This document shows, one piece after another, positions 9,496 through 43,146 of a stretch of 43,146 nt of DNA. The stretch's first letter is position 1. Every line of letters begins with the position of its first letter. Below the pieces are notes generated by a model. That model saw only the letters and a list, made by a program, of their open reading frames with translations, searched no databases and was not told the origin of the DNA. The stretch comes from a virus. The translations under genes and the position numbers were made by a program. Location of the stretch: the IMG/VR virus record IMGVR_UViG_3300031760_000155. One strand, given 5' to 3'.

Positions 9496-10626
9496 TTAAT
9501 CAAATAAATTTTCTACGGCGGTTTTGGTATCTTTGATTCCGGCAAGACCGTCTTCTATGGAGGCGCGGGTGTAATATTCCGTCATTTTCTCCGCCGCATG
9601 CCCCACAAGCTTGCGAACAGTATCAACAGGCAGGGTACGGCGCATCTTGGTCACGTAGGTGTAGCGCAACGAATGGGGGGTGAGTTTCCGACCGTCAAGG
9701 TCTATGCCAGCTTTTTCCAGAGCCTTTCTAAAAATCGTTTCAAGATACTCTTTGCGCATGGGCTTATTTTCATGTGTGAAAATGAATTGCTCCGCGTCAA
9801 TGCCCCTTTTTTGAATGTAATTTTCAACTAAACCGCACACGCGCTCAGGCAATAAAACGATGCGGAACTTGCGGTTTGATTCGTTGCCGGATTTGTTAAA
9901 GTCTGTCCGCACGTTGTCCCCGCGCATAAAACCGTCAATAACAAGGGCTTTGTCCGCAAGCAAAAACTGCTTAGGCCGTAACGCGCGAGCCTCACCCAGC
10001 CGCAACCCCGCAAAGGCAGACACAAGAAAAAGTAAATAAACCGTTTCCGCATCCACCGCAAAGCCCTGGAAGTTTTCAGGCACAAAAAGCCGCTTTAGTT
10101 CGCTGGAGCTGAATATGTCGGTCTTGCCCTGGGCACGAGTAAACGTAGGAAATATAGGCAAAGTCACCTTAAGCCCTTGCCATGCTGCCTCGTCGTAAAT
10201 CTCATAGAATACGGTGATGTAGTGCTTTTTCCAGCTGCCGGAACGGTCAACGCCAAGAAGGTAGTTGCCCACATCGCTAACTTTAATGTCGCGGATGTCG
10301 TAACTGCCCCATTTTTCAATGATTTTTTCTAAGTAGGTACGGCTTTCCTTTAGTGTTGATTCAAGCACCCCGCGCCCAAAGGCAGCACGGCGCTTGACGT
10401 GGTTAGAGCCTGGAAGGAACATGTCCCTTGCTATCTCGCGGATTGTGGCAACTTCCCTGTTGATTGGTGGCAATGCGCAAACAAAGGCCCATGCCTCGGC
10501 CTTGTTTTGACAGCCTTTGCAGACCTTTTGAATCTGCTTGCCGTCTTTGTAAAACCAATAGTACCAACGCTTTACGGTCTTTTTGCCCTTGCCAACCGTT
10601 TTTTTTTGGAAGATGTTATAGTCCAT
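9496..10626 (-). CDS. int: Tyrosine integrase with N-terminal arm-binding-type domain
   Basis: Catalytic signature AGLRLGEARAL, HSLRYTY, GHAAEKMTEYY (R, H-x-x-R, Y). N-terminus KRWYYWFYKDGKQ resembles arm-type DNA-binding domains. Confidence 0.9.
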   Translation of the reverse strand: MDYNIFQKKTVGKGKKTVKRWYYWFYKDGKQIQKVCKGCQNKAEAWAFVCALPPINREVATIREIARDMFLPGSNHVKRRAAFGRGVLESTLKESRTYLEKIIEKWGSYDIRDIKVSDVGNYLLGVDRSGSWKKHYITVFYEIYDEAAWQGLKVTLPIFPTFTRAQGKTDIFSSSELKRLFVPENFQGFAVDAETVYLLFLVSAFAGLRLGEARALRPKQFLLADKALVIDGFMRGDNVRTDFNKSGNESNRKFRIVLLPERVCGLVENYIQKRGIDAEQFIFTHENKPMRKEYLETIFRKALEKAGIDLDGRKLTPHSLRYTYVTKMRRTLPVDTVRKLVGHAAEKMTEYYTRASIEDGLAGIKDTKTAVENLFD

Positions 10627-13368: not shown

Positions 13369-14091
13369 ATGAAAATCACCATAACAAACGGAAAAGGCGG
13401 AACAGGAAAGACAACGCTTAACACGTTCCTTGCCTTTACCCTATTCAGCAGGGGCAAAAAAGTCCTGCTCATAGACCTAGACCCTAACTGCTCGCTAAGC
13501 GAAGTAATGGGAAAAATTCTTCTGCCGGAAAATTCAAAAGTGCTTTTGACCGGGCGCGAGGTAAAGCCCTACACCCTAAAGCAGACCGCAGAAGGTGCGA
13601 CACTTGACTTAATCCCATCCGACCTTGAGATGGACATGCTTGCCAACATCACCGACATGCAGTTAAAGCTACAGCTTAAAAAACAGGGCTTTGAGCAAAA
13701 ATATGACTACATCATAATTGACCCGCCGGGAACATGGAACGCCCAGACGCGCAACGCGGTCTTTGCAGCTGAAAGCGTCGTGGTTGTGGGCAAGTGCTCA
13801 CCGCTTGACTTTGCAGCAACTTCCAACTACATGCAGAAGCTTTCCGACTGTTGCCTTGACGCAGATGTAACCGTCGTATGCAATAGCTACAACCCCTTGG
13901 GCGACCCGGACAACATCTGGCAGCAATACAAGGACACATTCGGCGACTACCTCTTGCCCCAGGCAATGCCAAAGCTTAACAGCTTAAAGCGGTTCATGTT
14001 CAATCCCGATTACCACATCCGCGCAGACCTAGCGGAACGATTGGAGCCTTTTATTAAGGCGGCAACATTAGAAAACGGAGATGCAAAATGA
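13369..14091 (+). CDS. parA: ParA/Soj-family partition ATPase
   Basis: Deviant Walker A NGKGGTGKTT, LIDLDPN, IIIDPPG. Confidence 0.85.
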   Translation: MKITITNGKGGTGKTTLNTFLAFTLFSRGKKVLLIDLDPNCSLSEVMGKILLPENSKVLLTGREVKPYTLKQTAEGATLDLIPSDLEMDMLANITDMQLKLQLKKQGFEQKYDYIIIDPPGTWNAQTRNAVFAAESVVVVGKCSPLDFAATSNYMQKLSDCCLDADVTVVCNSYNPLGDPDNIWQQYKDTFGDYLLPQAMPKLNSLKRFMFNPDYHIRADLAERLEPFIKAATLENGDAK

Positions 14092-14317: not shown

Positions 14318-14716
14318 ATGATGAAAACTATCAAGATTGACAAAACCCGCTCTTGTACGGTAGACACAGAAAAGACAACTATCTATCCGAGTGTGGAAGC
14401 ATGGCAAGCAGAAGCAGAAAAACGCTTTGGAAAAGATTATATGAATTGGAAATTCCAGTGTCCGATGTGCGGACATATTGCTTCTATTGCCGATTTCAAG
14501 GCAGCAGGGGCAAAATCACCGAATTGCGCTTATCAAGAATGTATTGGACGATACACGGGTAAAGGCAGCCCAAAAGAAGGCGATTCATCAGGATGCAACT
14601 GGGCAGCATACGGATTATTCGGCATACCAAACGGAAAAAGTGTTTTCGTTATGACTGGCAACGAAGAAGGTCAAGAAATTTTTGATTACGCGCCTGCGCA
14701 GGGAGAAGAAAAATGA
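14318..14716 (+). CDS. Cys-rich (zinc-ribbon-like) hypothetical protein
   Basis: FQCPMCGH ... CAYQECIGRY ... SGCNW. GGAGGA SD upstream. Confidence 0.55.
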   Translation: MMKTIKIDKTRSCTVDTEKTTIYPSVEAWQAEAEKRFGKDYMNWKFQCPMCGHIASIADFKAAGAKSPNCAYQECIGRYTGKGSPKEGDSSGCNWAAYGLFGIPNGKSVFVMTGNEEGQEIFDYAPAQGEEK

Positions 14717-15795
14717 AACTTCAAAGCAACAACGCCAGCCACGTCAAAGTCCCGCTCGAATGCCTGCGCATAACAAGCAACGTGCGCCTTAACTTTGACG
14801 AAGAGCAGATAAAAGAACTGGCTGTTTCCATAAAGGAAAACGGCCTAATCAATGCCATCACGGTTAAGCCGCCTGTAGAAGAAAACGGCGTAAAATACTA
14901 CGAGGTCATAGCAGGCGGAAGGCGCATCCGTGCCCTAAAATGGCTTTGCGACCACGGGGACGATTTTTCTATGGTTGACTGCAAGGTGTCAAACGGCGAT
15001 GCCTGGACAATCCAGATGATAGAGAATATCCAGCGTGCAGACCTTTCCCCGCGCGAAAAGGAAAGTGCCCTTGCCCTTGCCCTTGAAAACGGCCTTACCC
15101 AGACGCAGATAGCAGACCGCCTTTCAAAGCCAATCTCTTGGGTATCGGACACAATGGCAGGTGCAAAAGTCCGCCGTGTGGCAGATGCACAGGGGCTTAA
15201 GACAGATGAAATTAGCACAAAGACGCTTTCTCAATTAAGGTCAATTCCAGACGCAAACCTTCCGGAAGTTCTTTCCCGCCTTGTAAGCGAGGGGGGCTCA
15301 TACCGTACCGCCACAAGGCTTGCCCAGGAATGGAAGGCAGAGCAAGAGGCAAAGGCATACGGTCAAAAGCCCTTCTTTGCTCCAGAGGCAATTTCTAACG
15401 CTAGTAGTCCAAAAGAAGACCCTGTAATGGAAAGGCAGCAGATCCGGGAAACAGAAAAAGAAGAAGAAGATGCCTTTGCAATGGTAGAGCATGAAAGACC
15501 GCAGGAAGAAGAAGCAACCTGTTCCAAATTGGAAACAGTTGCGCCAGATCCAGAAGTAAAGACGCGGGAAATTGTCAACAAGCCCGATTGTTTTATCTGG
15601 GAAATAAGCAACGAACTGGACATGGAAGCGGCGATACTTTCACTTAGAGACAAAATAAAAAAGATGCCGCAAAACACCAAGCTGTGCATAAAAGACTGCG
15701 GGCGTGTTCTTACCATTTCCGGCATTGAATACAGGCCTGGAACAGACGAACTGGTCTTTATGTCTCAAACGCCAGATGCGAGGGTGCTAGGCTAA
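14713..15795 (+). CDS. parB: ParB-like N-terminal domain protein (partition / nuclease-like)
   Basis: ENGLINAITVKP...YEVIAGGRRIRALKWL is the ParB box (GxRRxRA). Acidic C-terminal half. Follows parA. Confidence 0.8.
   Translation: MKLQSNNASHVKVPLECLRITSNVRLNFDEEQIKELAVSIKENGLINAITVKPPVEENGVKYYEVIAGGRRIRALKWLCDHGDDFSMVDCKVSNGDAWTIQMIENIQRADLSPREKESALALALENGLTQTQIADRLSKPISWVSDTMAGAKVRRVADAQGLKTDEISTKTLSQLRSIPDANLPEVLSRLVSEGGSYRTATRLAQEWKAEQEAKAYGQKPFFAPEAISNASSPKEDPVMERQQIRETEKEEEDAFAMVEHERPQEEEATCSKLETVAPDPEVKTREIVNKPDCFIWEISNELDMEAAILSLRDKIKKMPQNTKLCIKDCGRVLTISGIEYRPGTDELVFMSQTPDARVLG
15392..15407 (+). promoter_or_regulatory. 16-bp near-palindrome TTTCTAACGCTAGTAG (copy 3 of 4), inside parB
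   Basis: Encodes ISNASS. Its reverse complement matches copy 1 at 15 of 16 positions. Confidence 0.75.
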
Positions 15796-16052
15796 TGGCA
15801 AAAGGTGACTGGCAGTACATGGCAAGCGAAACGCTCAAACAGACCATCGCATTCGACAAGAAAAGCGGCTGGCTCTTTTGCCAGGACGGGACGCGCTACA
15901 GTCCGCAGGAACTGGCAAAGATAACCAAAAACTGGACACAGGCAATCGACTTCCCGCTGCAAGTCCACCTTCTAAAAAAAGAATTTGGCGGCGAAATTGA
16001 ATTTGTGGGAGAAAAAGCTCCTGTTTCAGAAACGGGGCAAATTAGAAAATGA
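15795..16052 (+). CDS. Hypothetical 85-aa protein
   Basis: Coupled ORF (TAATG) between parB and the primase gene. Confidence 0.55.
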   Translation: MAKGDWQYMASETLKQTIAFDKKSGWLFCQDGTRYSPQELAKITKNWTQAIDFPLQVHLLKKEFGGEIEFVGEKAPVSETGQIRK

Positions 16053-19000
16053 AAAAAGAACTACCATTCGAAAAATACAAGACACACCTCTTTGACTATT
16101 TGCGCCTGCACGGAATTAACGCTGAATCCGGGCAAATGATCTGTTGTCCCTGGCACGATGACCCCACACCTTCCCTTTCCTTTTTCACAGACAGCGACGG
16201 CTTCCCCCGATTCAAATGCTTTGGTTGCGGAAAGCAGGGAGACATCTACAGTGCCGTGGAATTCTGCGAGGGCATCACCGACGCTAAAAAACAGTTTGAA
16301 GAAATAGAAAACATTTTCGGAACTGGCGGGGACATTTCAAAGCAGTTTGTCCCGCCGCCAAAAAAAGAAAAGTACCAGTTTGTCCCGGACAGGGAAAAGC
16401 TGGCAAAAATTCAAAAGTGGCTCGACGGCCTTGAACACAAAAAAGAAAACATCCTGTCTTATTTCCGCACCCGCGCGGAATACAAGACCGCAGGGGAGCA
16501 GTCAAGCTACCCTCTCAACCCCTACGAGCTTGACCGCCTGGCATCCTTTTTCTTCTGGTGGCCGGGCGCATCACAGGCCGTGGCAGAGTTTGGCAACACG
16601 TTCCTTTTTTCTGCCGGAGTTCCCTATAAAAAAAGCAAGAACGGCTCGCGCATTGTGGAAGAATTTCAAAATGCAGAGGACTTCCCAAAAGAAGGTGCTG
16701 CCGGAAAGATTTATCTTGAACAAAAAACCGACACCTGTTTTTTCTGGAATGAAACAAGCAAAAGCTATGAAAAGGCAAAGGAAGACCCCCGCGAGCTTGC
16801 CTGGTGGCATTCCGGCATTCTTGCAAAGTCCCCGGACGGCATGAAGCTTCTTTATATGAATGAAAAGGACTTTGAAAGCATGAAGGTAAACCCGCGCACG
16901 GGAGTGTCCTTCTTCCCCATTCCGGGAGAGCTTCCAACGGAAAAGCCTGTTGTCCTTATGGAGGGCGAAATAGATGCAATCCTTTGCCAGTCCATCGGCA
17001 TAGGGAACGCTTTTTCCATGGGTGGTCTGGGAAACCTTTCTGTCCCAAAAATTAAAAAGTTTTTGATGCCAAAAAAAATCCCGGAAATAATTCTTTTTGC
17101 TGACAATGACAAAGCCCCTAAGTGCCAGAGCCAAAAGGCTTTCGGCATGATGCCTTATGCAGAAGGCGATGCTGTTGTACAGACAATCCCGGAAAAGCTT
17201 TTGGAAGCGGGCTTTGAAGGAAAAATAAAGGTAACTTCCCTCCCGCCCGAATGTCCATACAAAGACCCGGACGATGCCATCCGCAACGGAAAGCGGCAGC
17301 TTGTCTTTGATGCCATAGCCAATGCCTTGGATTATGTCGCACCAAAAAAGCCGGAAAAGAAGACGGCAAAAAAGGAAGCAGAAAAAAGCCAGCCAAAAAA
17401 AATCCGGGGTACTGTTTACCAGGAATGGGACACAATCCCATTAAAATTTTACAAATCCCTTTTGAAAAAATTCAAATGGTCCAACCTCCAGGAAGAAGAC
17501 AAGAAGCCCTTTGTGTGCGCCGCATACAAGGCCTGCAAAGAAGACGGCGCACTGGATGCGCTCATAAGCTTTACCAACAATGACTTTGACAAGGAAGCAA
17601 TAGAAAAAGCCTCGGAGCTTTCCGCAACTCCCTTCTACCTCTTGGAACTTGGCGAAAAGTATGAGCTTTCAAAGTTCATAATTGACAAGCTGGAAGAGCA
17701 TCTTGTTCCGGCAAAAGAAATCCTGCGCATTTTTAAAATCGAAGAGACTGTTGTCCCTGTTGACTACGAGGCAATGGCAGAAAATGAAAATTTGATCGCT
17801 TTTATAGAAAAGAAGGACAACTTCTTTGCCGCTTGCGTTATAGCCGATGCAACGGACGGCAATATTATTTATGTTGAAAAGGAGAAAGCTCATTATGCGT
17901 TCCGAGGCGTTGCTTGGGAGCGTCTGCCAGGCCTTGCCGTGGAAGCACACAAAATTCTTCAAAACATTCTTTTAACTTACTTGGAAAAAAATCTGTCCCA
18001 GAAGGACGTTATCAATAAAATTTTAAAGCAAATCGGAAGCCGCCGGTTCCGACTTGACCTTGTTAAAGACTTCAATGAATTCCGCGGTGAGACCTACCGC
18101 GAAGAGGTCATGTTCGACAGTGTACCTATACAGGCTACGCTCACCATGCAGGACGGTGTTGTTGATTTTTCTGGAGACAAGCTCATTTACCGTAAGGCAA
18201 CGCGCGAAGAGTACCGCCGTGCAGTCCTTCCCTACACCATCGGGCAAATTAAAAAAGCCGGAAAGCCAGAGCAGTTCTTGAAGCTCCTGGAAGGAGACTT
18301 TGAAAAGCCCAGCGTGGAAACGTTGCAAAGAAACTCCGTAACAACTGTAAAAACTTTGCTTTACTATCTGTCATTAGTCCAGAGCAGAAACACCCAGTAT
18401 AAATACGGCGGCTTTTTCCTTGGTCATGGTGGTACTGGAAAATCTACACTTTGTTCAATAATAGATGCTATCTACCCGGACAATTGCACGCAGCTCCAGA
18501 ACGAAATTTTAATTTCTGTGGGAAAACGCTTCCAAAGTTCAAACGGCCCTACACCGGAAATTGCAAAACTGGAAGGTAAACTTATAGCATTTGTCCAGGA
18601 GACCCCTAAAGATGGACGGCTCAACACTAATACGTTCAAACTGTTGACAGGCGGCGATAAACTTTCCGCCCGCTTCCTTAACCGCGACCCGCACGAATTT
18701 TTCCCCACGGCACAAATCCTTGTAAGCTCAAACAATTCCCCGGACTTTGAACACGGAGATGATGCCGCAATTAAAAGAATGATAATTTTCCGCTTCAACA
18801 TTGAGCATGAAAAAGGATTAAAGGAAAGCAAAACTCCCAAAGAATTTATCGAAGAATTGCGCCCGGAATTTCCTGCCATAATCAAGATGCTCGCGGAGCA
18901 CTACATAGAACTGCATACAGTGTTCAAGGGTAAAATCCCCATGAGCACGGAATGTGTAAACGAAAAAAACCTCTATGTCCAGGAACAGGAAAAGGACACT

Positions 19001-19465
19001 GACCGTTTCGTAAAGCTTTGCATCCGCTACGCCTTCACCGACAACGATGCATTCATAACTAGCCGTGACCTTTATTTGATTTACCTTAATTTACTTGGCA
19101 TCCAGGAAGGCTCCAAGGAAGCTGCAACACAAAGGCAATTCACTACATGGTTAAAGGCAGACTACAAGGAGTTCCGCCGTTCATACAAGCAAAAACGTCT
19201 GGACGGCAGCGCAAACCCTGAATGGGGCTTTGAGCACATTGCCCTGACTGACTACGGCAAGGAACTTCTAAAGCAAACCCCGCCCGAACCAAGTGACCAG
19301 CTGGGCTTTGACCAGTCCGCAACACCGCCGGACGATGACCCCTTTGCCAATGCAAGCTTTGCCCCACCACCCAAAAAGAAGGCAGCAAAGAAAAAGCCGG
19401 AAGCATCATTAAAGATGCCGGAGCCAGAAGAAGACACTGGCAACGATGACTTTGACATTTACTAG
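16049..19465 (+). CDS. Primase-helicase fusion (CHC2 zinc finger, TOPRIM, D5/P4-type SF3 helicase)
   Basis: CCPWHDDPTPSLSFF...FKCFGCG (CHC2); MEGEIDAIL and FADNDKA (TOPRIM); GHGGTGKST Walker A with downstream LIAFVQE (Walker B-like); Lys/Pro-rich acidic C-terminal tail. Confidence 0.85.
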   Translation: MKKELPFEKYKTHLFDYLRLHGINAESGQMICCPWHDDPTPSLSFFTDSDGFPRFKCFGCGKQGDIYSAVEFCEGITDAKKQFEEIENIFGTGGDISKQFVPPPKKEKYQFVPDREKLAKIQKWLDGLEHKKENILSYFRTRAEYKTAGEQSSYPLNPYELDRLASFFFWWPGASQAVAEFGNTFLFSAGVPYKKSKNGSRIVEEFQNAEDFPKEGAAGKIYLEQKTDTCFFWNETSKSYEKAKEDPRELAWWHSGILAKSPDGMKLLYMNEKDFESMKVNPRTGVSFFPIPGELPTEKPVVLMEGEIDAILCQSIGIGNAFSMGGLGNLSVPKIKKFLMPKKIPEIILFADNDKAPKCQSQKAFGMMPYAEGDAVVQTIPEKLLEAGFEGKIKVTSLPPECPYKDPDDAIRNGKRQLVFDAIANALDYVAPKKPEKKTAKKEAEKSQPKKIRGTVYQEWDTIPLKFYKSLLKKFKWSNLQEEDKKPFVCAAYKACKEDGALDALISFTNNDFDKEAIEKASELSATPFYLLELGEKYELSKFIIDKLEEHLVPAKEILRIFKIEETVVPVDYEAMAENENLIAFIEKKDNFFAACVIADATDGNIIYVEKEKAHYAFRGVAWERLPGLAVEAHKILQNILLTYLEKNLSQKDVINKILKQIGSRRFRLDLVKDFNEFRGETYREEVMFDSVPIQATLTMQDGVVDFSGDKLIYRKATREEYRRAVLPYTIGQIKKAGKPEQFLKLLEGDFEKPSVETLQRNSVTTVKTLLYYLSLVQSRNTQYKYGGFFLGHGGTGKSTLCSIIDAIYPDNCTQLQNEILISVGKRFQSSNGPTPEIAKLEGKLIAFVQETPKDGRLNTNTFKLLTGGDKLSARFLNRDPHEFFPTAQILVSSNNSPDFEHGDDAAIKRMIIFRFNIEHEKGLKESKTPKEFIEELRPEFPAIIKMLAEHYIELHTVFKGKIPMSTECVNEKNLYVQEQEKDTDRFVKLCIRYAFTDNDAFITSRDLYLIYLNLLGIQEGSKEAATQRQFTTWLKADYKEFRRSYKQKRLDGSANPEWGFEHIALTDYGKELLKQTPPEPSDQLGFDQSATPPDDDPFANASFAPPPKKKAAKKKPEASLKMPEPEEDTGNDDFDIY

Positions 19466-22600: not shown

Positions 22601-22936
22601 ATGAAAATTTACATTGCCGGAAAAATAAGTGGCGAAAAGCGTTTTGAGATGCAGGAAAAATTTTATGACGCGGCAGCCTTCCTTACCAGTAGAGGAAACG
22701 AGCCGTTCATTCCAAGCATCCTCCCAGCCTACGAAGATGTGCCGCATGAAGACTACCTTCACATTTGCTACGCAATGATAGACATTTGCGATGCAATCTA
22801 CATGCTAAGGGACTGGCAGCAAAGCAAAGGCGCACGCCTGGAATTGCAGTATGCCGCTGATTGGAAAAAGGACATCTACTACCAAGACCCTGCCACAATA
22901 GAAGAAAACTTCCCGGTAAGACATGATCTTGGCTGA
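22601..22936 (+). CDS. DUF4406 / nucleoside 2-deoxyribosyltransferase-like protein
   Basis: MKIYIAGKISG...CDAIYMLRDWQQSKGARLELQYA matches the YIAGPI(S/T)G...CDA...W..S.GA..E pattern. Confidence 0.65.
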   Translation: MKIYIAGKISGEKRFEMQEKFYDAAAFLTSRGNEPFIPSILPAYEDVPHEDYLHICYAMIDICDAIYMLRDWQQSKGARLELQYAADWKKDIYYQDPATIEENFPVRHDLG

Positions 22937-23234
22937 AAAAAAAGAAGAGTGTCATGGCAAGGACATAATTGTCCTTACCATATACGCCCTTGAAGACGGC
23001 AGCTTCACATTCTCACTCCAGTGTGCCGTAGCCGGAATAATCCGCGCCGCCTACCCGCACCAGTTGCCGGACAAATACGCATCCCCCGCAAGCGCAAAAA
23101 CCGCCGCCCTTGCCCTACTTAAGAACTGGACCGCTCAAAGCCGCACCGCCAAAGCCCGCCTAAAAGAATTCGGCATCACTTTCTGCGACACCCAGCTGGA
23201 ATTTAACTTTGACATCCAAGAAGAAAACGGATAA
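22923..23234 (+). CDS. Hypothetical 103-aa protein, last plus-strand early gene
   Basis: Track ORF. Its 3' end converges on and overlaps the RT gene end by 32 nt. Confidence 0.5.
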   Translation: MILAEKKEECHGKDIIVLTIYALEDGSFTFSLQCAVAGIIRAAYPHQLPDKYASPASAKTAALALLKNWTAQSRTAKARLKEFGITFCDTQLEFNFDIQEENG

Positions 23235-24174
23235 CCTTTAAAAGTTGCCGAACATAAAACATGTAGTTGTCTGTATGCACTGCATGTCCGCACATACTCG
23301 CAATACTTTTACAAAATTTTTCTGCTTTAACTTCTCCTTTTAGAAATTTATTCACAAACCTTCTTGTTTTATAAATAGTTTGCTTTTTTATCATTTTACC
23401 TTTTGGGTAAATTTTATAACCTACAAATTCAACGCCTTTTGCAATTTTTCCTATTGTAGTCTTTTTATTTAATTTTAGAAAAAGTTTTGTATTCAAAAAA
23501 TATTCTATTAAATGCAAAACTCGTTTTAACTCGGATTTATTTCCAAGCAAAATAAAATCGTCCATATAACGCACATAAAATTTTATTTTCAAATTTTGTT
23601 TTACAAATTTATCAAGCTCATTTAAATATAAATTTGCCGTAAGCTGACTTAATCTATTCCCGATTTTTATACCTTTTTCTGGATTATCTTTATGTAAAAT
23701 CTGAAATATTAAATTTAAAGTCCTTATGTCTGATATATGTCTTTTATAAAGTTCAAAAGCTATATCAAGATCTACATTATAAAAATATTTTTCAATATCG
23801 CATTTTAAATAATATTCTGTTTTGTTTTTGCCTATAAAATAACTAAGTCTATTGGCAGCTTTTAATGCACCTTTTTCTTTTAAACAGGCATAACTATCAT
23901 AAATAAAAGTTTTAATTATTTCTGGTTCTATCACATTACAAAGGGCACTTTGGACAACTCTATCACGATAAGGCAATGCATTTATTTCACGTCTTTTTGG
24001 TTCGTATTTTATAAATGTATAAAAATCGCCTAATTTGTATAAATTCCATAATAATTCATTTTGTAATTGTATTAAATTTTCTTCTAAATGATTATAAAAT
24101 TTTAATGATGCAGCTTTATAAGCTGCAAGTAAATTGTCAAAACTGCAAATTTTTTCAAAAATATTTTCCATCAT
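23203..24174 (-). CDS. DGR reverse transcriptase
   Basis: IGNRLSQLTANLYLNELD (DGR-typical SQ motif) and YMDDFILLG (YxDD catalytic box). About 320 aa. Adjacent to TR and avd. Confidence 0.9.
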   Translation of the reverse strand: MMENIFEKICSFDNLLAAYKAASLKFYNHLEENLIQLQNELLWNLYKLGDFYTFIKYEPKRREINALPYRDRVVQSALCNVIEPEIIKTFIYDSYACLKEKGALKAANRLSYFIGKNKTEYYLKCDIEKYFYNVDLDIAFELYKRHISDIRTLNLIFQILHKDNPEKGIKIGNRLSQLTANLYLNELDKFVKQNLKIKFYVRYMDDFILLGNKSELKRVLHLIEYFLNTKLFLKLNKKTTIGKIAKGVEFVGYKIYPKGKMIKKQTIYKTRRFVNKFLKGEVKAEKFCKSIASMCGHAVHTDNYMFYVRQLLKVIRFLLGCQS

Positions 24175-24190
24175 ATATTTTTTTTAATTA

Positions 24191-24222
24191 TAAAAAACAG
24201 GAAGGTTCGCAAACCTTCCTGT
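24191..24222 (-). terminator. 11-bp stem hairpin plus T run between TR and RT (DGR spacer structure or attenuator)
   Basis: Minus sense ACAGGAAGGTT-TGCG-AACCTTCCTGT followed by TTTTTA, ending about 17 nt upstream of the RT ATG. Confidence 0.5.
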
Positions 24223-24336
24223 CAGTAAATGATTTTAGTTTATATAAAAAAACTAAAGACGACTAATCTGATTCAAACTCCTAAAAAGAGCAACCACTGC
24301 TAAAAATCCGTAAACATTTTAGCTTCCTTTTTTTTT

Positions 24337-24470
24337 GAATCACAGGCAAGCCGGGAGCCAATGTTGCATTCACATTCCAAGGAGAATTGTTCCCATTGAC
24401 CGTGCGCGGGCCATAGTGAACCCCTTCATTCCAGTTGCCACCGCAAATGAAAGCGCGCAAACCTTCGCTG
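24337..24470 (-). repeat. DGR template repeat (TR), 134 nt
   Basis: Near-identical to 24894-25028. Abuts the avd stop codon (24473-24475). Confidence 0.9.
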
Positions 24471-24472
24471 CA

Positions 24473-24847
24473 TTAGCCGCCTTGTTTTATTAAGCCGCCC
24501 AAAATACGCCCTAATTCTGCCATCATTTTTTCAGCTGTCTCATAGCTTTTTAATGACAAATATTTTGAACCTTTGGAATAAGCAAAGCGAATGTAAAAGC
24601 GTAAAATCTCAAACTCTGTATCAATTTTGTACCAACCTTCGTTTTTTCTGGCGCTTCGATTAGTTCTTATTATTAACTCTATAATGCGATGTAAACAGTT
24701 TTTTATATCTGTCTCAAGTGCAAAGTGTTCATAATGCGGGAACTTTTCAATCCTTGGTTCAAAATAAATTATAAAATCTTCAAATTTTCTAAACAAGATT
24801 AAATTTTGAACATTTCCTGCTCGAAAATTTATGTTTGCTGTTTTCAT
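24473..24847 (-). CDS. avd: Accessory variability determinant (Avd, four-helix-bundle protein)
   Basis: 124 aa, basic helical protein (KFPHYEHFALETDIKNCLHRIIELIIRTN...) located between the target gene and TR, as in BPP-1-type DGRs. Confidence 0.8.
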   Translation of the reverse strand: MKTANINFRAGNVQNLILFRKFEDFIIYFEPRIEKFPHYEHFALETDIKNCLHRIIELIIRTNRSARKNEGWYKIDTEFEILRFYIRFAYSKGSKYLSLKSYETAEKMMAELGRILGGLIKQGG

Positions 24848-24880
24848 AAAACCAGATTTCCAGAATTTCAGAAAACAGGT

Positions 24881-24898
24881 GATTCGCTAACGCGAATC
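24881..24898 (-). promoter_or_regulatory. VR-flanking hairpin (7-bp stem, 4-nt loop) overlapping the target stop codon
   Basis: GATTCGC-TAAC-GCGAATC on the plus strand. Absent at the equivalent TR end, where the sequence runs into a T run. Confidence 0.7.
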
Positions 24899-26092
24899 AC
24901 AGGCAAGCCGGGAGCCAACGTTCGCATCCACACGCCAAGGAGAATAGTTCCCAGTGACCGCGCGCGGGCCATAGTGAACCCCTTCATTGCAGCGCCCACC
25001 GCAAATGAAAGCGCGCAAACCCTCGCTGTTAGGTAAATATGCCTGTCCTTGTTCTGCGCCCAAAACATTTTGCCAGCCCCAAGATATACTTCCAAAATCT
25101 AAAAAATTATCTTTTGTCCATTCGTAAATATTTCCAACGCAGTCAACAATATTTTTTGCAGATATTGCGTATGGCTTTACTCCAGACACATTGTCGAAGG
25201 CTCCAGTCGAGGTATTAACTTGGCACCCTGTGAATGTTTTCGCTGTATTTGTAGTCTTTGCCCATGCATAATTATTGGCTCCGTTTTCGGCCTGTGGGCT
25301 GCCAAAAGCAGAAGCCAGCCATTCTGTATATGAGAGCAACCGCAATCCCTGTCGCTCTGCAAGTTCATTGAAATTATACATATTCAAGCCCTCTGTTCCT
25401 GTCAATGGCAAGCAACCATATTTTGACTGTAGTTTTCCTTCCGCAACGGATAAACCGTTTGTCCCGCTCATAAATGTAACCGTTTCTAAAGCTGACGGTT
25501 GATAAATGAAACACCACAAATTCTTATTAACCTGCGCCATTCCACCAAACAAAGTCTTAGGCCTGTTCTTCAAATCCCACACCGAATTCGGCACGATGCC
25601 AGTAGTTACATTATCCTGCCACTTGGTGCCGGAAGAGCCCCATTTTGTACCTGTAGAATCAACAGGCACCCAAAGCCCATCCTCGCTAACTTTGCGGATG
25701 TGCCCCACGTGGAAGCCGCCAATCTTTCGCGAATTGTCCGCCGTAAATCCATCCGGGTAGGTTGTATTCAAAGACACAACGATGGCCGGGTCTTCGTTGC
25801 CGTCAATAACAAGATAAACAAAGTAATCGTTCCCGATGGCAAGTGTGTCCCCAGTGTCAAGGTTTGCCACCGGATCAAACTCAATGTCCCCGCGGTTAAT
25901 GAACTGCCGCCAGGTGTTGCCGTCGTAAAGGTCAATACCAGTGCCGTCCTTTAAAATCAATTTGTTTTCATCGTAAAGGAACGGGTCTTTCTTCTGTAAA
26001 AACGAATCGCCGACACATTTGAAATTTCCGCTTTCCGGGATGCACGCAACGGTGCAATCGTCAACTAAATCTTTATATATAAGCAAACTCAT
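24887..26092 (-). CDS. DGR target protein: tail-fibre/receptor-binding protein with C-terminal FGE-type C-type-lectin fold
   Basis: C-terminal SYTEWLASAFG...NIYEWTKDN...RAFICGGRCNEG...SPWR is typical of FGE/SUMF1-like DGR variable proteins. Last gene of the fibre module. Confidence 0.85.
   Translation of the reverse strand: MSLLIYKDLVDDCTVACIPESGNFKCVGDSFLQKKDPFLYDENKLILKDGTGIDLYDGNTWRQFINRGDIEFDPVANLDTGDTLAIGNDYFVYLVIDGNEDPAIVVSLNTTYPDGFTADNSRKIGGFHVGHIRKVSEDGLWVPVDSTGTKWGSSGTKWQDNVTTGIVPNSVWDLKNRPKTLFGGMAQVNKNLWCFIYQPSALETVTFMSGTNGLSVAEGKLQSKYGCLPLTGTEGLNMYNFNELAERQGLRLLSYTEWLASAFGSPQAENGANNYAWAKTTNTAKTFTGCQVNTSTGAFDNVSGVKPYAISAKNIVDCVGNIYEWTKDNFLDFGSISWGWQNVLGAEQGQAYLPNSEGLRAFICGGRCNEGVHYGPRAVTGNYSPWRVDANVGSRLACDSR
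24894..25028 (-). repeat. DGR variable repeat (VR), 135 nt, at the 3' end of the target ORF
   Basis: Aligned by hand to TR. There are 10-11 differences at TR adenines (coding sense), 2 at non-adenines and a 1-nt indel. Confidence 0.9.
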
Positions 26093-26367
26093 GCCAACAC
26101 CTCCATCAGTGCATTTATTTCCGCATCGGTAATTCCAATTTTATACTTTGCGGCCGCAGGATTGTCCACAAGCTCATAGTCCTCGTCTGTAAGCTCTTCC
26201 GAGGGCTTACCCTTGCTTGCATCCTTCAAGACCTTCATATAGTGGTCATCACGCAAATGCTTAAGCCGTGAATACAAAAGCCTTTTTCCGCTGTTTGTCT
26301 TCACCGCAAAATCTACGGCATTCTGCCAGTCCTTTTTTGTTTGGCAGTAATCAGGTATTCCAACCAT
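26089..26367 (-). CDS. Hypothetical 92-aa protein (possible fibre assembly/adaptor)
   Basis: ATGA coupling to the DGR target gene; no motif recognised. Confidence 0.55.
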   Translation of the reverse strand: MVGIPDYCQTKKDWQNAVDFAVKTNSGKRLLYSRLKHLRDDHYMKVLKDASKGKPSEELTDEDYELVDNPAAAKYKIGITDAEINALMEVLA

Positions 26368-26379
26368 CTTTTATTCCTC

Positions 26380-26958
26380 CTATTCAATCTCCGAAAATTG
26401 CAAATTAACCTTCATCGTGTCAAACTCTCCCCACTTCCCTATTCCCCATTTTCTCACACCCCACTTTATGCGCCTAGTGCCAGGAATTATTTTCCCGTCA
26501 ACCAACCGCCGGGGGTATATGTGAAGGCCGTCGCTACGGCATTCAGTCCCAAAGGGAAGGAACTCTTCATAGTTCCCGTTAGGCGTGACCACCGCGGCAT
26601 AGGTCTTTGCAGGGTCAAAGTTAATGCCAAGCGTTCCCCATGGAATTGTAGTCTCCACCCCGGACACGTCAAACGCAAAGATGCGCGAATTGAGTGCATC
26701 CTGTATGATGCGCAGAATTGCGTCAAGAACGTCCGAACTGTCCATGTTGTCCGGCACGTTTGAAGGCTGCCTTGCCGTAGTGCCAAAAGCCTTTTTAAAA
26801 ATTGCCGTCCTTGCGCCAAGCAGATCGTTGAACCAAAGCGCACGCCAGGGCGTACCGTCTATGCTCCCCGGTGACGTTGCCGGAACCGCCTTGCCGTATG
26901 GATATGCAGTATCCGTATCGTCGCGGAAGTCCGTATAATTTCCATCAATCTTAAGCAT
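26380..26958 (-). CDS. Putative tail fibre / fibre-adaptor protein
   Basis: GGAGGA SD before the ATG at 26958 (MLKIDGNYTDFRDDTD...). Lies between the gp48-like gene and the DGR target. Confidence 0.5.
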   Translation of the reverse strand: MLKIDGNYTDFRDDTDTAYPYGKAVPATSPGSIDGTPWRALWFNDLLGARTAIFKKAFGTTARQPSNVPDNMDSSDVLDAILRIIQDALNSRIFAFDVSGVETTIPWGTLGINFDPAKTYAAVVTPNGNYEEFLPFGTECRSDGLHIYPRRLVDGKIIPGTRRIKWGVRKWGIGKWGEFDTMKVNLQFSEIE

Positions 26959-26960
26959 CC

Positions 26961-27665
26961 TTATTCCTCCGTCCATTCAACCGCAAGCACCGCCACCGTA
27001 TGGACAGGCTTAATGCGCAGAATGAAGTATTCAATGTAATTTTTGTAAATCCGCGGAATCTGCAATTTCTCCACATAAAGAATTTCATTGCGTGAATTGC
27101 GGACGATGTTCTTGCAAACATAAAAGCAGAACTCCCAGTACCGCTCGTCATTGGGGATTGAATAAGGCCCCGCCGTTCCATTCCTTAGAATTGTAGGCAC
27201 AAAGCTTTCATCGCCCTCGCGGTAGTCGCAGACCGCCTTTTCCCCATCGCACACCATTATCTCGTTATCGCAAACCGCAAAATAAGCGATGTTCGATTCG
27301 CGCGGATTTGCGCAAGGAATGTTTTCTTCAACAACAATTCCGGGAAAAACATTTTCCAAAACGCTGCGGATAAAATACAAGGACTGCCCGCCGTGGTTCA
27401 TGCCCCACAAAAGGCTTAGAAAGTTCCGCCTCTGCTCAATGTCCATGTTTGCCGAAAGAACGGTAAAAACCTCTTCCCACCTGTCAATGCAACGCGTTGA
27501 ATCCGGGAAGAAGTCCATGTAAACCCTTTCAATTTCCCGCCGCAAATCCTCCGGCAAGACGGCAATAGCCTCGAAAAGTTTCCGCACGTTCTTTTCCTGC
27601 GTCAAATTCCAGGCACTGCTGGAGGGAAGCAAATTTTTAACGGCGTTAAAAAAACTAGCCCTCAT
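26961..27665 (-). CDS. Mu gp48-like tail protein (YmfQ / DUF2313-like)
   Basis: LLPSSSAWNLTQEKNVRKLFEAIAVLPEDLRREIERVYMDFFPDSTRCIDRWEEVF fits the DUF2313 pattern. Start chosen at 27665 (11-nt overlap with the J-like gene). Confidence 0.65.
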   Translation of the reverse strand: MRASFFNAVKNLLPSSSAWNLTQEKNVRKLFEAIAVLPEDLRREIERVYMDFFPDSTRCIDRWEEVFTVLSANMDIEQRRNFLSLLWGMNHGGQSLYFIRSVLENVFPGIVVEENIPCANPRESNIAYFAVCDNEIMVCDGEKAVCDYREGDESFVPTILRNGTAGPYSIPNDERYWEFCFYVCKNIVRNSRNEILYVEKLQIPRIYKNYIEYFILRIKPVHTVAVLAVEWTEE

Positions 27666-28869
27666 ATAGCTCTCCGTTAATATAGAGATTGCCCAACGCT
27701 GCAAGCTCACCTTTGCCAAGGTCATATTCGCTAATTTCCGGGCCGTTAATGTTCATTGTCACCGTATCAAACTTGGCCTTCATGCTGACCGCCACACTGT
27801 TGGCAATGGATATTAGCGAGTTCCTAAGAATTGAATCGCTCCTGTTGTTGTCGCTCGAAAGCCCGCGGATGTACGGCTCGCGGTTGTCAAAAAAAGTTTC
27901 AAGCTCCGTTTTTAATTGGCTTCCAAAATCGCCGTCCCCGGAAAAACCAGTAACATAAACATTGAATGTAATAATTCTTACCGCGCGGACATTGGGATAA
28001 GATTCATCCCCCCGCGGGTCAAGAATTGCCGTTATCGGCTTCCTATTGGCAACCCCTGTGTCCGGGTCATAGGTGCAGGCGTGTCCCACTTGCTTAAGCA
28101 AAGTTGAATCGGGCACTCTGTCCGGGAACAAATCAGTCGTCCCTGAAACATAAAGCAGAACTCCCCCGGGCGAATCTTCATCATTGTATGGATAGGTCTG
28201 CAAAACACCAGGCACGTCAAAAGCCCAAAGACGGTAATCAGCCAAAGCCCCACCTTGTGGCTGCGTGCTATACCTGTTAAGAACCCTGCTTCTATAGTGT
28301 GCCTCTGTCTCGTCGTCAACACCCAGCTTCACCGTCTCCACCACTTCTGCATCTTCCTGGACAAATCCAATCGGTGAGACAAAATGAAGGCTGTCCCCTT
28401 CGTCAAGATTTCCGACAATCCCAGACTGTGTGCAGTAAACGGGAATGTCAACGCTTTCGCCCTCCGTCATCACGGAAACGGAAGTCGCATAAAGGCAGCC
28501 GGTCTTTTCACTCTTAAGCTGCGTACCCGCCATAACCGCGTTGCCTGTATAAATGACGTTGGCCCTAACAGTTCCTTCCCATGCTGTGCCGCTCGTAGGA
28601 TTCCCCACGCCAAACAAATTGCCCAGCTTAACAAGCGGACGCAAGGTGTAGCCAAGAACGTCCACCTCGTCAAAGGATGCTGTATCTGGAAAAAGCTGCA
28701 AATAAAACCACCCGGTCAATTTATAAGGAATTAAAAAAATTCCCGCAAGTACCTTGGACAAAACAACAATAAAGGACTTGGGCAAGAGCCTAAGCCTGTT
28801 GTTGAATTTCTCCTGAAAACTTTGAATCAATAAGTTATATATGTAGTCAACCGTTTTATTCTCGTACAT
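27655..28869 (-). CDS. Baseplate J-like protein (Mu gp47)
   Basis: 404 aa. Lies between the gp46-like and gp48-like genes and has the usual size of baseplate J proteins. Confidence 0.7.
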   Translation of the reverse strand: MYENKTVDYIYNLLIQSFQEKFNNRLRLLPKSFIVVLSKVLAGIFLIPYKLTGWFYLQLFPDTASFDEVDVLGYTLRPLVKLGNLFGVGNPTSGTAWEGTVRANVIYTGNAVMAGTQLKSEKTGCLYATSVSVMTEGESVDIPVYCTQSGIVGNLDEGDSLHFVSPIGFVQEDAEVVETVKLGVDDETEAHYRSRVLNRYSTQPQGGALADYRLWAFDVPGVLQTYPYNDEDSPGGVLLYVSGTTDLFPDRVPDSTLLKQVGHACTYDPDTGVANRKPITAILDPRGDESYPNVRAVRIITFNVYVTGFSGDGDFGSQLKTELETFFDNREPYIRGLSSDNNRSDSILRNSLISIANSVAVSMKAKFDTVTMNINGPEISEYDLGKGELAALGNLYINGELYEG

Positions 28870-29331
28870 TTACCGCACCGCCTCTGTCCATTGGAATTCA
28901 TAAGCGCACCCGCCCGTCTTTTTTCCGTCCTGCATGACCTCAACGCTAAGGTTGACGCTCTTTGCGCTGGTGGCAGAAAGCGACACATTAACCTCGTCCG
29001 CATCCACCTCAGTCCTTAACCATGCAAGGTCACGCCCAGCCGCCGCCTCTGCCTTCTGGATGTTCGCGCTTGTCAAAGGGTAGCCCGCAACTGTTGCCCC
29101 GAACTCGCTCTGCATCCATTCGCTCCTGTCTGTGCCTGGAATAAGGTTCCCCCACCAGGTCTCTTTCTCGCGCCCGTCCGCATCGCTTTCGTTCCCGCCA
29201 AAAAGTGAAAGATAAGCCGCCGTATCAAAGTTCCGGCAGTCCTTGACAAGCCCGTTTTCAATCTTTATGTCTCCGCCGTCCGGGGTCGCCGTGTAAAGCA
29301 CGTCCCCTTCAAATACGTTTACATCTTCCAT
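28870..29331 (-). CDS. Mu gp46-like baseplate protein (GP46 family)
   Basis: TAAYLSLFGGNESDADGREKETWWGNLIPGTDRSEW...AGRDLAWL fits the GP46 pattern (SLF...R..WWG...GS.LW...AL.WL). Confidence 0.7.
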   Translation of the reverse strand: MEDVNVFEGDVLYTATPDGGDIKIENGLVKDCRNFDTAAYLSLFGGNESDADGREKETWWGNLIPGTDRSEWMQSEFGATVAGYPLTSANIQKAEAAAGRDLAWLRTEVDADEVNVSLSATSAKSVNLSVEVMQDGKKTGGCAYEFQWTEAVR

Positions 29332-42850: not shown

Positions 42851-43048
42851 TTAATTGTTCGTAAAAAACAAACAGCTGGCAATATACGCGCTTTGGGTCA
42901 AGCCAGAATCTTGAACAGCCTTGTCAAGCTTTTCTTTCTGCTCCGGCGTGCAGCAAAAAGAAACGGTCACGGCCTTTGCGCCGTCTTCCTTTTGCTTGCG
43001 CCCGACATTCTTCCGGGCACCGCCTCTATTTTCTTTTTTCAATTCCAT
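42851..43048 (-). CDS. Ribbon-helix-helix (CopG/MobC-like) DNA-binding protein, 65 aa
   Basis: Basic N-terminal arm then VTVSFCCTPEQKEKLDKAVQDSGLTQSAYIASCL (beta-alpha-alpha pattern). Confidence 0.6.
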   Translation of the reverse strand: MELKKENRGGARKNVGRKQKEDGAKAVTVSFCCTPEQKEKLDKAVQDSGLTQSAYIASCLFFTNN

Positions 43049-43146
43049 TTATTCCCCTTCATCAATTTCTTGCCACACATGATAACCACGATACTCCTCT
43101 CGCATATATTCAAGATCCTTTTTTCTTTCCTCTGGTGTATCTTTTA
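43020..43146. repeat. Second copy of the terminal repeat (identical to 1-127)
   Basis: Identical string read at both ends. Confidence 0.9.

Follow-up and report, generated by a model that had tools for sequence, protein, structure and literature searches.

The window analysed here (the whole 43,146-nt stretch of IMG/VR record IMGVR_UViG_3300031760_000155) carries on its minus strand what is, judging from its sequence, almost certainly a diversity-generating retroelement (DGR) of the BPP-1 type. It is probable that the element is of this type and, jointly, that the copy in the window can no longer diversify its target productively. The host genome is that of a complete, circular, temperate, contractile-tailed phage of ~43 kb from a gut or rumen-type metagenome. 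It encodes a sheath protein, baseplate J, a Mu gp48-like protein, an integrase and ParA/ParB, and a related contig, IMGVR_UViG_3300032038_005059, is held in IMG/VR.

Layout of the element and identity of its proteins

All of the features described below lie on the minus strand, and their coordinates are given 5′ to 3′ along it. The gene for the target, an Mtd-like tail protein (26092..24887, 401 aa), is followed by avd (accessory variability determinant; 24847..24473, 124 aa), the template repeat (TR; 24470..24337, 134 nt), a spacer (Sp) RNA between TR and the reverse transcriptase (RT) gene (24336..24175, 162 nt) and the RT gene itself (24174..23203, 323 aa). The variable region (VR; 25028..24894, 135 nt) is the 3′-terminal 135 nt of the target ORF, exclusive of the final 7 nt (..CGTTAG) that hold the stop codon, and is the single TR-like copy within the window. 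The coordinates given to the target gene, avd, TR, VR and the RT gene in a first-pass annotation of this DNA were all correct. The HMM checks that it had proposed for a DGR RT, Avd and an FGE domain were run, and RVT_1, NF033474 and FGE-sulfatase were matched.

The target protein scored 76.4 bits against Pfam mtd_2nd, above the cut-off; its residues 237–397 scored 28.1 bits against Pfam FGE-sulfatase (cut-off 23.3), and it matched PHROG 11262 (tail protein) at 2e-45. The only PDB matches were to BPP-1 Mtd variants (E=2.7e-9, residues 80–399), and the alignment with BPP-1 Mtd extends up to the C-terminal ...G.R..CD. The closest relatives from phage isolates were those of Chromohalobacter phage YPCBV-1 (31.9%) and the BPP-1 family mtd. 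Genes for baseplate J, the Mu-gp48-like protein and a fibre-like protein lie upstream of the target gene. These data agree with the earlier proposals of an FGE-type C-type-lectin fold at the C-terminus and of a place in the tail module, and the target is accordingly annotated as a predicted Mtd-like receptor-binding tail protein with a C-terminal FGE/C-type-lectin-like domain.

The RT matched Pfam RVT_1 (66.4 bits) and PHROG 1423 (1.7e-95). Its best PDB match was the BPP-1 RT, bRT (8ub7_A, E=1e-45, residues 3–307), the next-best matches, of group II/retron type, being at 8e-15. The IGNRLSQ and YMDD motifs noted previously are present, in keeping with the [ILV]GxxxSQ and YxDD of the DGR clade, and the catalytic, template-contact and dNTP-contact residues of bRT are kept (F66, R74, I76, D138, I181, G182, Q187, D215 and D216). 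Avd scored 91.3 bits against NCBIfam NF033474 DivGenRetAVD (cut-off 80) and 84.4 bits against Pfam bAvd (PF22296), and its PDB matches were to BPP-1 Avd (4dwl, 8ub7_B). BPP-1 DGR proteins are thus the best solved-structure matches for target, Avd and RT alike, and the matches of RT and Avd bear out the original assignment to the BPP-1 type. The exact Avd protein was counted on 165 contigs (239 index blocks).

Comparison of TR and VR

TR and VR align over 134 columns, with 12 mismatches and one 1-nt gap (90.4% identity). Ten mismatches fall at the 27 adenine sites of TR (24464, 24436, 24435, 24403, 24396, 24388, 24376, 24375, 24370 and 24362), compared with two at its 107 non-adenine sites (Fisher one-sided p=1.2e-6). 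On realignment the ten positions were exactly those listed in the first-pass annotation, and the codon changes given there from TR to VR (N>R, T>A, N>T, N>Y, N>R and N>D) are also right. Its placing of the differences at TR adenines applies to 10 of the 12; the two non-adenine mismatches had been passed over. These are TR C24437 > VR G24995, which is synonymous (Gly), and TR G24431 > VR C24989, which replaces Trp with Cys within the GGxW motif. The eleventh difference that had been entertained at 24365 is not a substitution but a genuine 1-nt deletion in TR. With the missing G restored, 25 of the 27 TR adenines occupy codon positions 1–2, and eight AAY codons are found. TR is an island of 53.7% GC amid AT-rich avd and spacer sequences.

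VR ends in an A-poor, IMH-like segment (24918..24894, TTGGCTCCCGGCTTGCCTGTGATTC; TR counterpart 24361..24337). The last varying adenine is at TR position 110, and A132 is constant in the 12 VRs. A TR change at position 135 in the related genome L056 has no counterpart in VR, nor does a VR change at position 131 in L059 and L062 have one in TR. The IMH-like segment would appear, from these markers, to fall outside the transferred zone. At its end is a VR-specific hairpin (24900..24879, GTGATTCGC-GTTA-GCGAATCAC) with a 9-bp stem and a 4-nt loop. The final 7 nt of TR/VR homology and a further 2 nt make up the 5′ arm; the stop codon of the target gene is in the loop and 3′ arm. The DNA fold has a centroid energy of -10.1 kcal/mol (z=-3.3), and the hairpin was also picked up by a terminator scan. 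It is identical in 10 of 12 genomes, L059 and L062 having an uncompensated G>A in the 5′ arm; in L068 (78% RT identity) the stem is kept and the loop is different. TR has no 3′ arm and is followed instead by a poly(A) run. The hairpin may be the counterpart of the BPP-1 target-site hairpin, and together with the IMH-like segment it would provide target-site determinants that TR does not have.

Diversification among related genomes

VR is different in each of 11 related phage genomes, with nearly all changes at TR-adenine sites. The TR/VR mismatches per genome numbered 6–16 at A sites and 0–4 at non-A sites (p from 2e-4 to 7e-12, 12 genomes), and in L068 16 of 17 were at A. Adenines in the TR consensus account for 24 of the 36 variable VR positions. 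At the polymorphic TR positions 7, 13, 17 and 34, the variant present in TR is mirrored by the cognate VR in most genomes; departures from this occur in L059 and L062 (positions 7 and 34), in the window (34) and in L063 (13). On the strength of this mirroring in natural sequences, the DGR family is demonstrably active. Since markers at TR position 7 are mirrored, transfer would normally cover the whole of VR, and so would take in the site of the TR deletion. The lineages that share the cassette have only ~70% identity in the neighbouring baseplate genes; the AT-rich avd-spacer-RT cassette may move between phage lineages as a module that also takes in the target gene’s 3′ half.

Spacer RNA and proposed mechanism

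The predicted elements of the spacer are, in order, an Avd-binding-type stem-loop with a UACG loop and a bulged U (24323..24299), stem-loop 2 (24291..24277), a candidate primer strand, GAAUCA (24274..24269), which would pair with the TR 3′ end, UGAUUC (24342..24337), the 3′ strand of an avd:Sp duplex (24267..24256), stem-loop 3 (24255..24236) with a single-stranded stretch next to it, and an RT-binding-type, terminator-like stem-loop (24223..24196). The 5′ strand of the duplex, a candidate ‘cPRT Stop’ duplex, is AAGGCGGCUAAU at the avd 3′ end (24483..24472). The order of these elements agrees with the published bRT-Avd:RNA structure, and the duplex predicted here corresponds to the one between avd and Sp in the BPP-1 RNP (10.1101/2023.10.23.563531).

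Folded on its own, the spacer RNA had z=-2.4, and with the avd end and TR included z=-3.4; no Rfam family match to the spacer RNA was obtained. The avd:Sp duplex has 12 of 12 pairs in all six sequences, and in L068 and L070 two of those pairs have both bases changed and a third has a single base changed. Across alignment A1 the 51 proposed RNA pairs were 99.3% paired. Changes on both sides were found at 11 pairs, compared with 3.4±1.4 in shuffled alignments (0 of 500 reached 11) and 0–2 in slid controls, in a set of only about three independent lineages from whose sequences the RNA structure was itself derived. The covariation supports the predicted BPP-1-like spacer RNA. The primer strand is invariant save for one C>U wobble; it shows no covariation, so its pairing cannot draw support from that source. 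The candidate 6-bp pairing does have the A:U-then-G geometry of BPP-1 Sp A56 / TR U118 / G117. By analogy with BPP-1, priming would occur in cis from a nucleotide at ~24269, with 24343 as the first template base, and the same analogy would extend to the mechanism of homing.

A mechanism for the family can be proposed around what is established here, namely the part list, the adenine bias, the family-wide VR diversification, the transfer of TR markers to VR and the covariation-supported helices. The RNA of the avd 3′ end, TR and spacer would fold around an RT-Avd complex, with the primer supplied by the spacer. TR would be copied by the RT into cDNA, as in BPP-1, with misincorporation opposite adenines, and the cDNA would take the place of VR in the 3′-terminal part of the Mtd-like gene, guided by the A-poor 3′ segment and the VR-only hairpin. 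About a dozen mostly AAY-coded residues on a C-type-lectin receptor-binding face would be rewritten as a result.

Two deletions in the window copy

All of the 11 sister TRs carry GCGAAC where the window TR has GC-AAC, which indicates that the latter has lost a G between 24366 and 24365; TR is also full length at this site in L068 and L070. The RT gene has a 27-nt in-frame deletion (nine codons) at 24121/24120, in the N-terminal extension loop, that spans the columns of bRT K29/R30. The RT ORFs of ten genomes (L056–L065) were called at 332 aa, or at 345 aa in two with another start, and the partial RT of L001 also has the 27 nt. No gap was present at this site in 25 other aligned DGR RTs, bRT and L057 included. 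Both deletions were seen in the window alone among the genomes compared. In bRT the N-terminal loop with Lys29 is braced by Avd and contacts the first template nucleotide at its 5′ phosphate (10.1101/2023.10.23.563531). The description of the DGR as complete, made in the first-pass annotation, is not supported, given a TR one base short of VR and an RT without nine residues of the conserved N-terminal-extension loop.

As computed, full-length homing with the window TR would change the C-terminal end of the target from ..NVGSRLACDSR to ..TLAPGLPVIRVSESPVF, in each case followed by a stop. The motif lost on frameshifting aligns with Mtd ...NIGARGVCD. The 1-nt shortfall of TR relative to VR lies within the stretch that transfer normally covers, so that the full-length product would be a frameshifted Mtd without the conserved G.R..CD end. 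Given this frameshift and the loss of nine N-terminal-loop residues from the RT, we judge that the window copy is probably disabled and can no longer diversify its target productively. Short conversion tracts 3′ of the TR deletion could still vary three adenines.

Alternative explanations

A reading without a DGR, in which ordinary duplication of part of a gene has left the TR-like copy beside an unrelated retron or group II-type RT, has in its favour that the top-scoring NCBIfam model for the RT is a group II RT/maturase. That model, however, reached 107 bits against a cut-off of 300, the group II, retron and Drt models as a whole were far below their cut-offs, and bRT surpassed the other PDB matches by 30 orders of magnitude. 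Avd, moreover, clears its curated NCBIfam model, the TR/VR mismatches are adenine-specific in 13 genomes, and TR markers have been carried over into VR in relatives. The adenine bias held on realignment and the RT did not group with retron or group II RTs, an identity that the first-pass annotation had named as contrary to its own; this reading was rejected, its probability being negligible. Also very improbable is a reading in which the two deletions are errors of sequencing or assembly, in a genome whose DGR is in reality as intact as those of its relatives. Assemblers could be confused by two 135-nt repeats as nearly identical as TR and VR, and a TATAAARCTG direct repeat flanks the 27-nt deletion. 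Nevertheless, a second assembly (ENA ERZ27256908, k141_802907, 35,131 nt) shows 100% identity to the window along 6,972 nt that take in both deletions and VR, and the exact 323-aa RT was found on 3 contigs. The missing TR G lies outside any homopolymer, and a 1-nt deletion would not result from repeat collapse. The three lesion-bearing contigs (JGI, Logan and ENA) may be re-assemblies of one sample; the exact window Mtd was likewise found on just 3 contigs, possibly all from one sample.

There is some case for a DGR that is complete and functional in the window genome, the RT deletion being tolerated and the TR deletion being either harmless or purged only from progeny. Each of the parts is there and every ORF is open, the RT ORF being otherwise intact with its catalytic and template-contact residues kept; the spacer RNA has its helices and other elements intact, no Avd allele is commoner in the population than the one in the window, and the A-biased TR/VR pattern is retained. 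The column of bRT Lys29 is His in the window’s family, and the loop may therefore matter less there. Non-A mismatches number two in the window VR and 0–4 in the VRs of intact relatives; the window count, being inside the family range, gives no sign of long drift. We nonetheless regard this alternative as rather unlikely. The window TR is shorter than VR by 1 nt within the normally transferred region, which frameshifts the full-length product, the RT loop is ungapped in the 25 other DGR RTs and in bRT touches both Avd and the template, and two independent lesions in one cassette would be unlikely under selection. The preferred reading remains that of a BPP-1-type DGR whose window copy is disabled. 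A further, tentative possibility is that the window genome represents a DGR in the course of being switched off, a natural two-hit knockout in an active and widespread family, with one receptor-binding variant locked in.

Comparison with known systems

The element resembles the BPP-1 DGR in its identical gene order (mtd - avd - TR - brt) and in a target that is a true Mtd homologue, with the Mtd second domain, a C-type-lectin/FGE-like domain and the same G.R..CD end. The RT is short (~330 aa) and without a maturase or endonuclease domain, and a TR of ~134–135 nt directly follows avd and precedes a spacer of 140–160 nt. The order within the spacer is also the same: Avd-binding tetraloop stem-loop, primer strand pairing with the TR 3′ end, avd:Sp duplex, stem-loop, single-stranded stretch and RT-binding stem-loop. 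A hairpin adjoins the VR 3′ end in both, although that of the window overlaps the end of the repeat and is not downstream of it. In contrast, Mtd identity is just ~27–29%, the RT match is distant, yet full-length (E=1e-45), and the window phage has a contractile tail, an integrase and ParA/ParB, whereas BPP-1 is a podovirus. The window family has His for Lys at the bRT K29 column, and the TR -1 and nine-residue RT deletions belong to the window copy only. The 3′ spacer stem-loop of the window differs in having a perfect helix of 12 bp with a U-run after it, and so looks like a terminator.

The RVT_1 palm and fingers are shared with group II intron and retron RTs, and an N-terminal extension is common to DGR and group II RTs (10.1101/2023.10.23.563531). 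The window element would further share with retrons its priming from a 2′-OH, as established for BPP-1. It differs from these systems in that PDB matches to them are at ~1e-14, as opposed to 1e-45 for bRT, in scoring below every curated NCBIfam cut-off of those families and in having no maturase/X domain, intron RNA or msr/msd.

Approximately 31,000 DGRs have been catalogued (10.1101/2023.10.23.563531), and the targets of viral DGRs are mostly tail proteins (Roux et al. 2021, PMC8144416). The present element is like the catalogued metagenomic phage DGRs (PMC8144416) in placing VR within a C-terminal C-type-lectin domain of a tail/host-attachment protein and in activity that is visible as VR diversity in natural populations. 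The two-lesion state, however, is a property of the window genome and not of the class.

Significance

Phage DGRs that diversify receptor-binding tail proteins are familiar and have been found in very large numbers, and the element thus adds a member and not a concept. Its natural relatives provide covariation support for the BPP-1 RNA architecture, specifically the Avd-binding stem-loop, the avd:spacer duplex and the RT-binding stem-loop, in a distant phage of an uncultured lineage. The TR polymorphisms copied to VR, together with uncopied markers at the 3′ end, delimit the transferred region without experiment. The two-lesion lineage draws attention to the N-terminal RT loop that Avd braces, and might be used as a natural knockout; if the two-hit knockout is real, it would constitute genetic evidence that the NTE loop is required in vivo. 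If the lock-in is adaptive, the window phage would offer a natural, near-isogenic control for the worth of tropism switching in the gut ecosystem.

Organization of the DGR cassette and its repeats

The cassette lies on the minus strand and consists of a target ORF of 401 aa (26092..24887), an avd ORF of 124 aa (24847..24473), a template repeat (TR) of 134 nt delimited by repeat alignment (24470..24337) and a reverse transcriptase (RT) ORF of 323 aa (24174..23203). These positions are exactly those proposed in the first-pass annotation, which was made from the sequence alone and had called a complete diversity-generating retroelement (DGR) at 23203–26092. The variable region (VR), identified by local alignment with the TR, occupies the last 135 nt of the target ORF (25028..24894).

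The TR–VR alignment spans 134 columns, with 12 mismatches and one single-base gap. Ten of the 12 mismatches are located at TR adenines, at the same ten coordinates that the annotation had listed. With adenine making up 27 of the 134 TR bases, the enrichment has a Fisher P value of 1.2e–6. The two mismatches at other bases were absent from the annotation; C24437>G (TR to VR) is synonymous in a Gly codon, and G24431>C changes the Trp of a GGxW motif to Cys. The latter change (TGG>TGC, window VR position 24989), which is not at a TR adenine, was also observed in the VR of the related genome L060, and has either arisen more than once or spread by recombination. Codon positions 1 and 2 of the TR reading frame hold 25 of the 27 adenines, and there are eight AAY codons. 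Besides the VR, no further TR-like copies were found in the window. At its 3′ end the RT gene overlaps a convergent 103-aa ORF (22923..23234, plus strand) by 32 nt (23203–23234); this ORF had no family match and is kept in relatives.

Identity of the DGR proteins

The RT matched Pfam RVT_1, and its best match among solved structures was bRT, the RT of the Bordetella phage BPP-1 (8ub7_A, E=1e–45, residues 3–307); group II and retron-type RTs followed at approximately 1e–14. Classification as a group II or retron enzyme was rejected; all of the NCBIfam group II, retron and Drt models scored far under their cut-offs. Avd scored 91.3 bits with the NCBI curated DGR Avd model (cut-off 80) and matched BPP-1 Avd in the PDB. 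For the target, the Pfam 'Mtd second domain' and an FGE-sulfatase domain were both over threshold, and the only PDB matches were to variants of Mtd, the BPP-1 target protein. The alignment with Mtd extends to the C-terminal end (..NVGSRLACD in the target, ..NIGARGVCD in Mtd). The target is preceded in the tail module by genes for the tape measure, baseplate J, a Mu gp48-like protein, a fibre-like protein of 198 aa and a protein of 92 aa. The protein matches, the tail-module position and the TR codon usage thus provide a sound basis for identifying a BPP-1-type DGR that acts on a receptor-binding tail protein. Insofar as they can be tested on sequence, all of the defining features of the BPP-1-type DGR family are present in the element.

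An active family: TR-to-VR copying in related genomes

Contigs were found by means of the invariant 3′ end of the repeat (one from IMG/VR and one from JGI), and the exact Avd protein was present in 165 counted contigs and 239 index blocks. Ten loci of 17–20 kb were retrieved, and the order mtd-avd-TR-RT was observed in all ten. In each of 12 close genomes, including the window, the TR and the VR differ at 6–16 adenine sites and at 0–4 other sites (P values from 2e–4 to 7e–12), and 24 of the 36 varying VR positions are adenines of the TR consensus. In L068, a more distant relative (78 % RT identity), 16 of 17 TR/VR mismatches are at adenines.

The TRs of the 12 genomes are nearly invariant. Their variable positions include 7, 13, 17 and 34, and at these the cognate VR has the same base in most genomes, the exceptions being L059 and L062 at 7 and 34, the window at 34 and L063 at 13. 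These matched variants represent a natural marker-transfer experiment; they show that TR-to-VR copying postdates the split of the lineages and that it usually extends over the whole VR. Changes seen at position 135 in a TR and at position 131 in a VR have no counterpart in the partner repeat, A132 is invariant, and the varying adenines end at position 110. On these grounds, we infer that the final ~25 nt of the repeat are an IMH-like target-site segment outside the copied zone.

Clusters at 90 % identity contained 137 (Mtd), 40 (Avd), 231 (RT) and 160 (baseplate J) members, but they take in fragments, and their sizes do not give a clean contrast in hypervariability. The sole usable contrast is the contig count of the top allele, 165 for Avd as against 7 or fewer for any Mtd.

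The VR-end hairpin and the spacer RNA

A hairpin, GTGATTCGC-GTTA-GCGAATCAC (24900..24879, minus strand), starts within the last bases of the VR, and its loop and 3′ arm contain the target stop codon. Ten of the 12 close genomes have this hairpin unchanged; in the other two, L059 and L062, a G>A in the 5′ arm lacks a compensating change. In L068 the stem is kept and the loop differs. Where the VR has this hairpin, the 3′ flank of the TR is a poly(A) run. The run (24328–24336 in the window) ranges in length from A8 to about A19 in the close relatives L056–L065, and is missing from the TR/spacer junction in L068 and in L070, a second distant relative.

In the cryo-EM structure of bRT-Avd:RNA, the first spacer element is an Avd-binding tetraloop stem-loop. 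The primer strand then pairs with the 3′ end of the TR, followed by a duplex of the spacer with the 3′ end of avd (the 'cPRT Stop') and, later along the spacer, by a single-stranded 'Thumb Ring' and an RT-binding stem-loop (10.1101/2023.10.23.563531). The window's 162-nt spacer can be drawn with the same order of elements. Covariation was assessed on a six-sequence alignment (A1), in which variation was supplied by the two IMG/VR relatives L068 and L070 (78–79 % RT identity). The 51 proposed pairs were 99.3 % paired, and 11 had changed on both sides, as compared with 3.4±1.4 in column shuffles (0 of 500 reached 11) and 0–2 with slid partners. The avd:spacer duplex (24483..24472 with 24267..24256, minus strand) accounts for two pairs changed on both sides and one on one side; four and one, respectively, were observed in both the Avd-binding-type stem-loop with its UACG loop (24323..24299, minus strand) and the 3′ spacer stem-loop (24223..24196, minus strand).

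RNAduplex energies, in comparison with shuffles, were only marginal for the avd:spacer duplex (P about 0.05) and not significant for the TR 3′ end with the spacer (P about 0.3), so that the duplex assignments derive from covariation. A candidate primer pairing, GAAUCA (24274..24269) with UGAUUC (24342..24337) on the minus strand, shares the BPP-1 geometry, in which the priming A is opposite U and template G follows; it is invariant, and is therefore offered as a guess. An Rfam scan of 22800–26400 at E≤1 returned no family and a single chance miRNA match.

The 3′ spacer stem-loop (24196–24223) forms a helix of 12 perfect base pairs, with a U-run after it, and is situated directly upstream of the RT start. 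From its sequence it looks like an intrinsic terminator, and it might both set the 3′ end of the DGR RNA and restrict RT expression. An 11-nt string, GAAGGTTTGCG, common to this stem-loop (24208–24218) and the TR 5′ end (24456–24466) was dismissed as being at chance level (BLAST E=1).

Two lesions in the window's copy

A further TR/VR difference, which the first-pass annotation had ascribed to gap placement, proved on comparison with sister TRs and VRs to be a 1-nt deletion in the window's TR, the loss of a G at 24366/24365. That TR reads GCAAC, while GCGAAC is found in each of the 11 sister TRs (12-genome set) and in every VR, the window's included; L068 and L070 also have a full-length TR at this site. 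The deletion falls within the zone that is normally transferred. The computed homing product would end in ..TLAPGLPVIRVSESPVF rather than ..NVGSRLACDSR, with loss of the motif matched to the Mtd C-terminal end.

The second lesion is in the RT gene, where 27 nt (9 residues; YKTVSKEHR or, equivalently, TVSKEHRYK) are missing at 24121/24120, flanked by a TATAAARCTG direct repeat. The RT ORFs of the ten genomes L056–L065 are 332 aa in length (345 aa in two, with a different start called), and the partial RT of the related genome L001 contains the 27 nt. In an alignment of 26 DGR RTs, only the window's RT has a gap at the deleted columns, which correspond to bRT K29/R30. The conserved Lys29 of bRT is on an Avd-braced loop of the N-terminal extension, which is the Avd interface, and touches the 5′ phosphate of the first template nucleotide (10.1101/2023.10.23.563531). 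The catalytic and dNTP/template-contact residues of the window's RT are all kept.

An ENA assembly matching the window at 100 % identity over 6,972 nt has both lesions, which are therefore not the artefact of one assembler. The window's genotype was found on three contigs (JGI, Logan and ENA). These may be one data set re-assembled, and the proposal that the VR is frozen across independent samples was accordingly dropped. On balance, it seems fairly likely that the two lesions block productive diversification by this copy.

Phage context and probable cassette exchange

In view of an exact terminal direct repeat of 127 nt (1–127 and 43020–43146), the window is circular and complete as assembled, at about 43,019 bp. 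It encodes a terminase, portal, protease, major capsid protein, tail sheath and baseplate proteins, along with a methyltransferase; a tRNA scan of the window found none. An integrase is encoded alongside ParA/ParB and a large DUF5906 primase (9496–10626, 13369–14091, 14713–15795 and 16049–19465). The phage may persist integrated or as a plasmid-like prophage.

Megablast of a 3.1-kb region against phage isolate genomes gave no match, and the best match of the TerL protein among phage isolates was at most 34 % identical (Vibrio phages); a close cultured relative is thus absent among the phage isolate genomes searched. In GTDB representative genomes the nearest RT was 45 % identical, so the prophage was not found among them. 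Neither the TerL comparison nor the GTDB search pointed to a host. Identical or near-identical Mtd, Avd and RT proteins (P0003, P0004, P0016 and P0033) were present in MAG bins labelled Lachnospiraceae, Treponema and Selenomonas, in which the phage contig has probably been mis-binned.

The G+C contents of avd (31.7 %), the spacer (27.2 %) and the RT gene (25.3 %; GC3 16 %) may be compared with those of the genome (46.3 %) and the tail module (50 %). Window 23203–24847 is a sharp compositional island, within which the TR forms an island of its own at 53.7 % G+C. Over 22923–29331, three related genomes (L056, L058 and L063) match the window at only 68–73 % identity in the genes for baseplate J, the 153-aa protein and the fibre-like protein. 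Across the intergenic stretch between VR and avd, avd itself, the spacer and the RT gene the figure is 98–100 %, and for the target's 3′ half it is 90 %. The far higher identity of the cassette suggests, as judged from these sequence comparisons, that the DGR cassette and the receptor-binding end were recently exchanged between phage lineages.

The element differs from the BPP-1 DGR in that its host phage is of another type, its VR-end hairpin overlaps the end of the repeat, its 3′ spacer stem-loop is terminator-like and, in the window's genome, it carries two lesions. The element probably works like the BPP-1 DGR, and adds a member to that known family.
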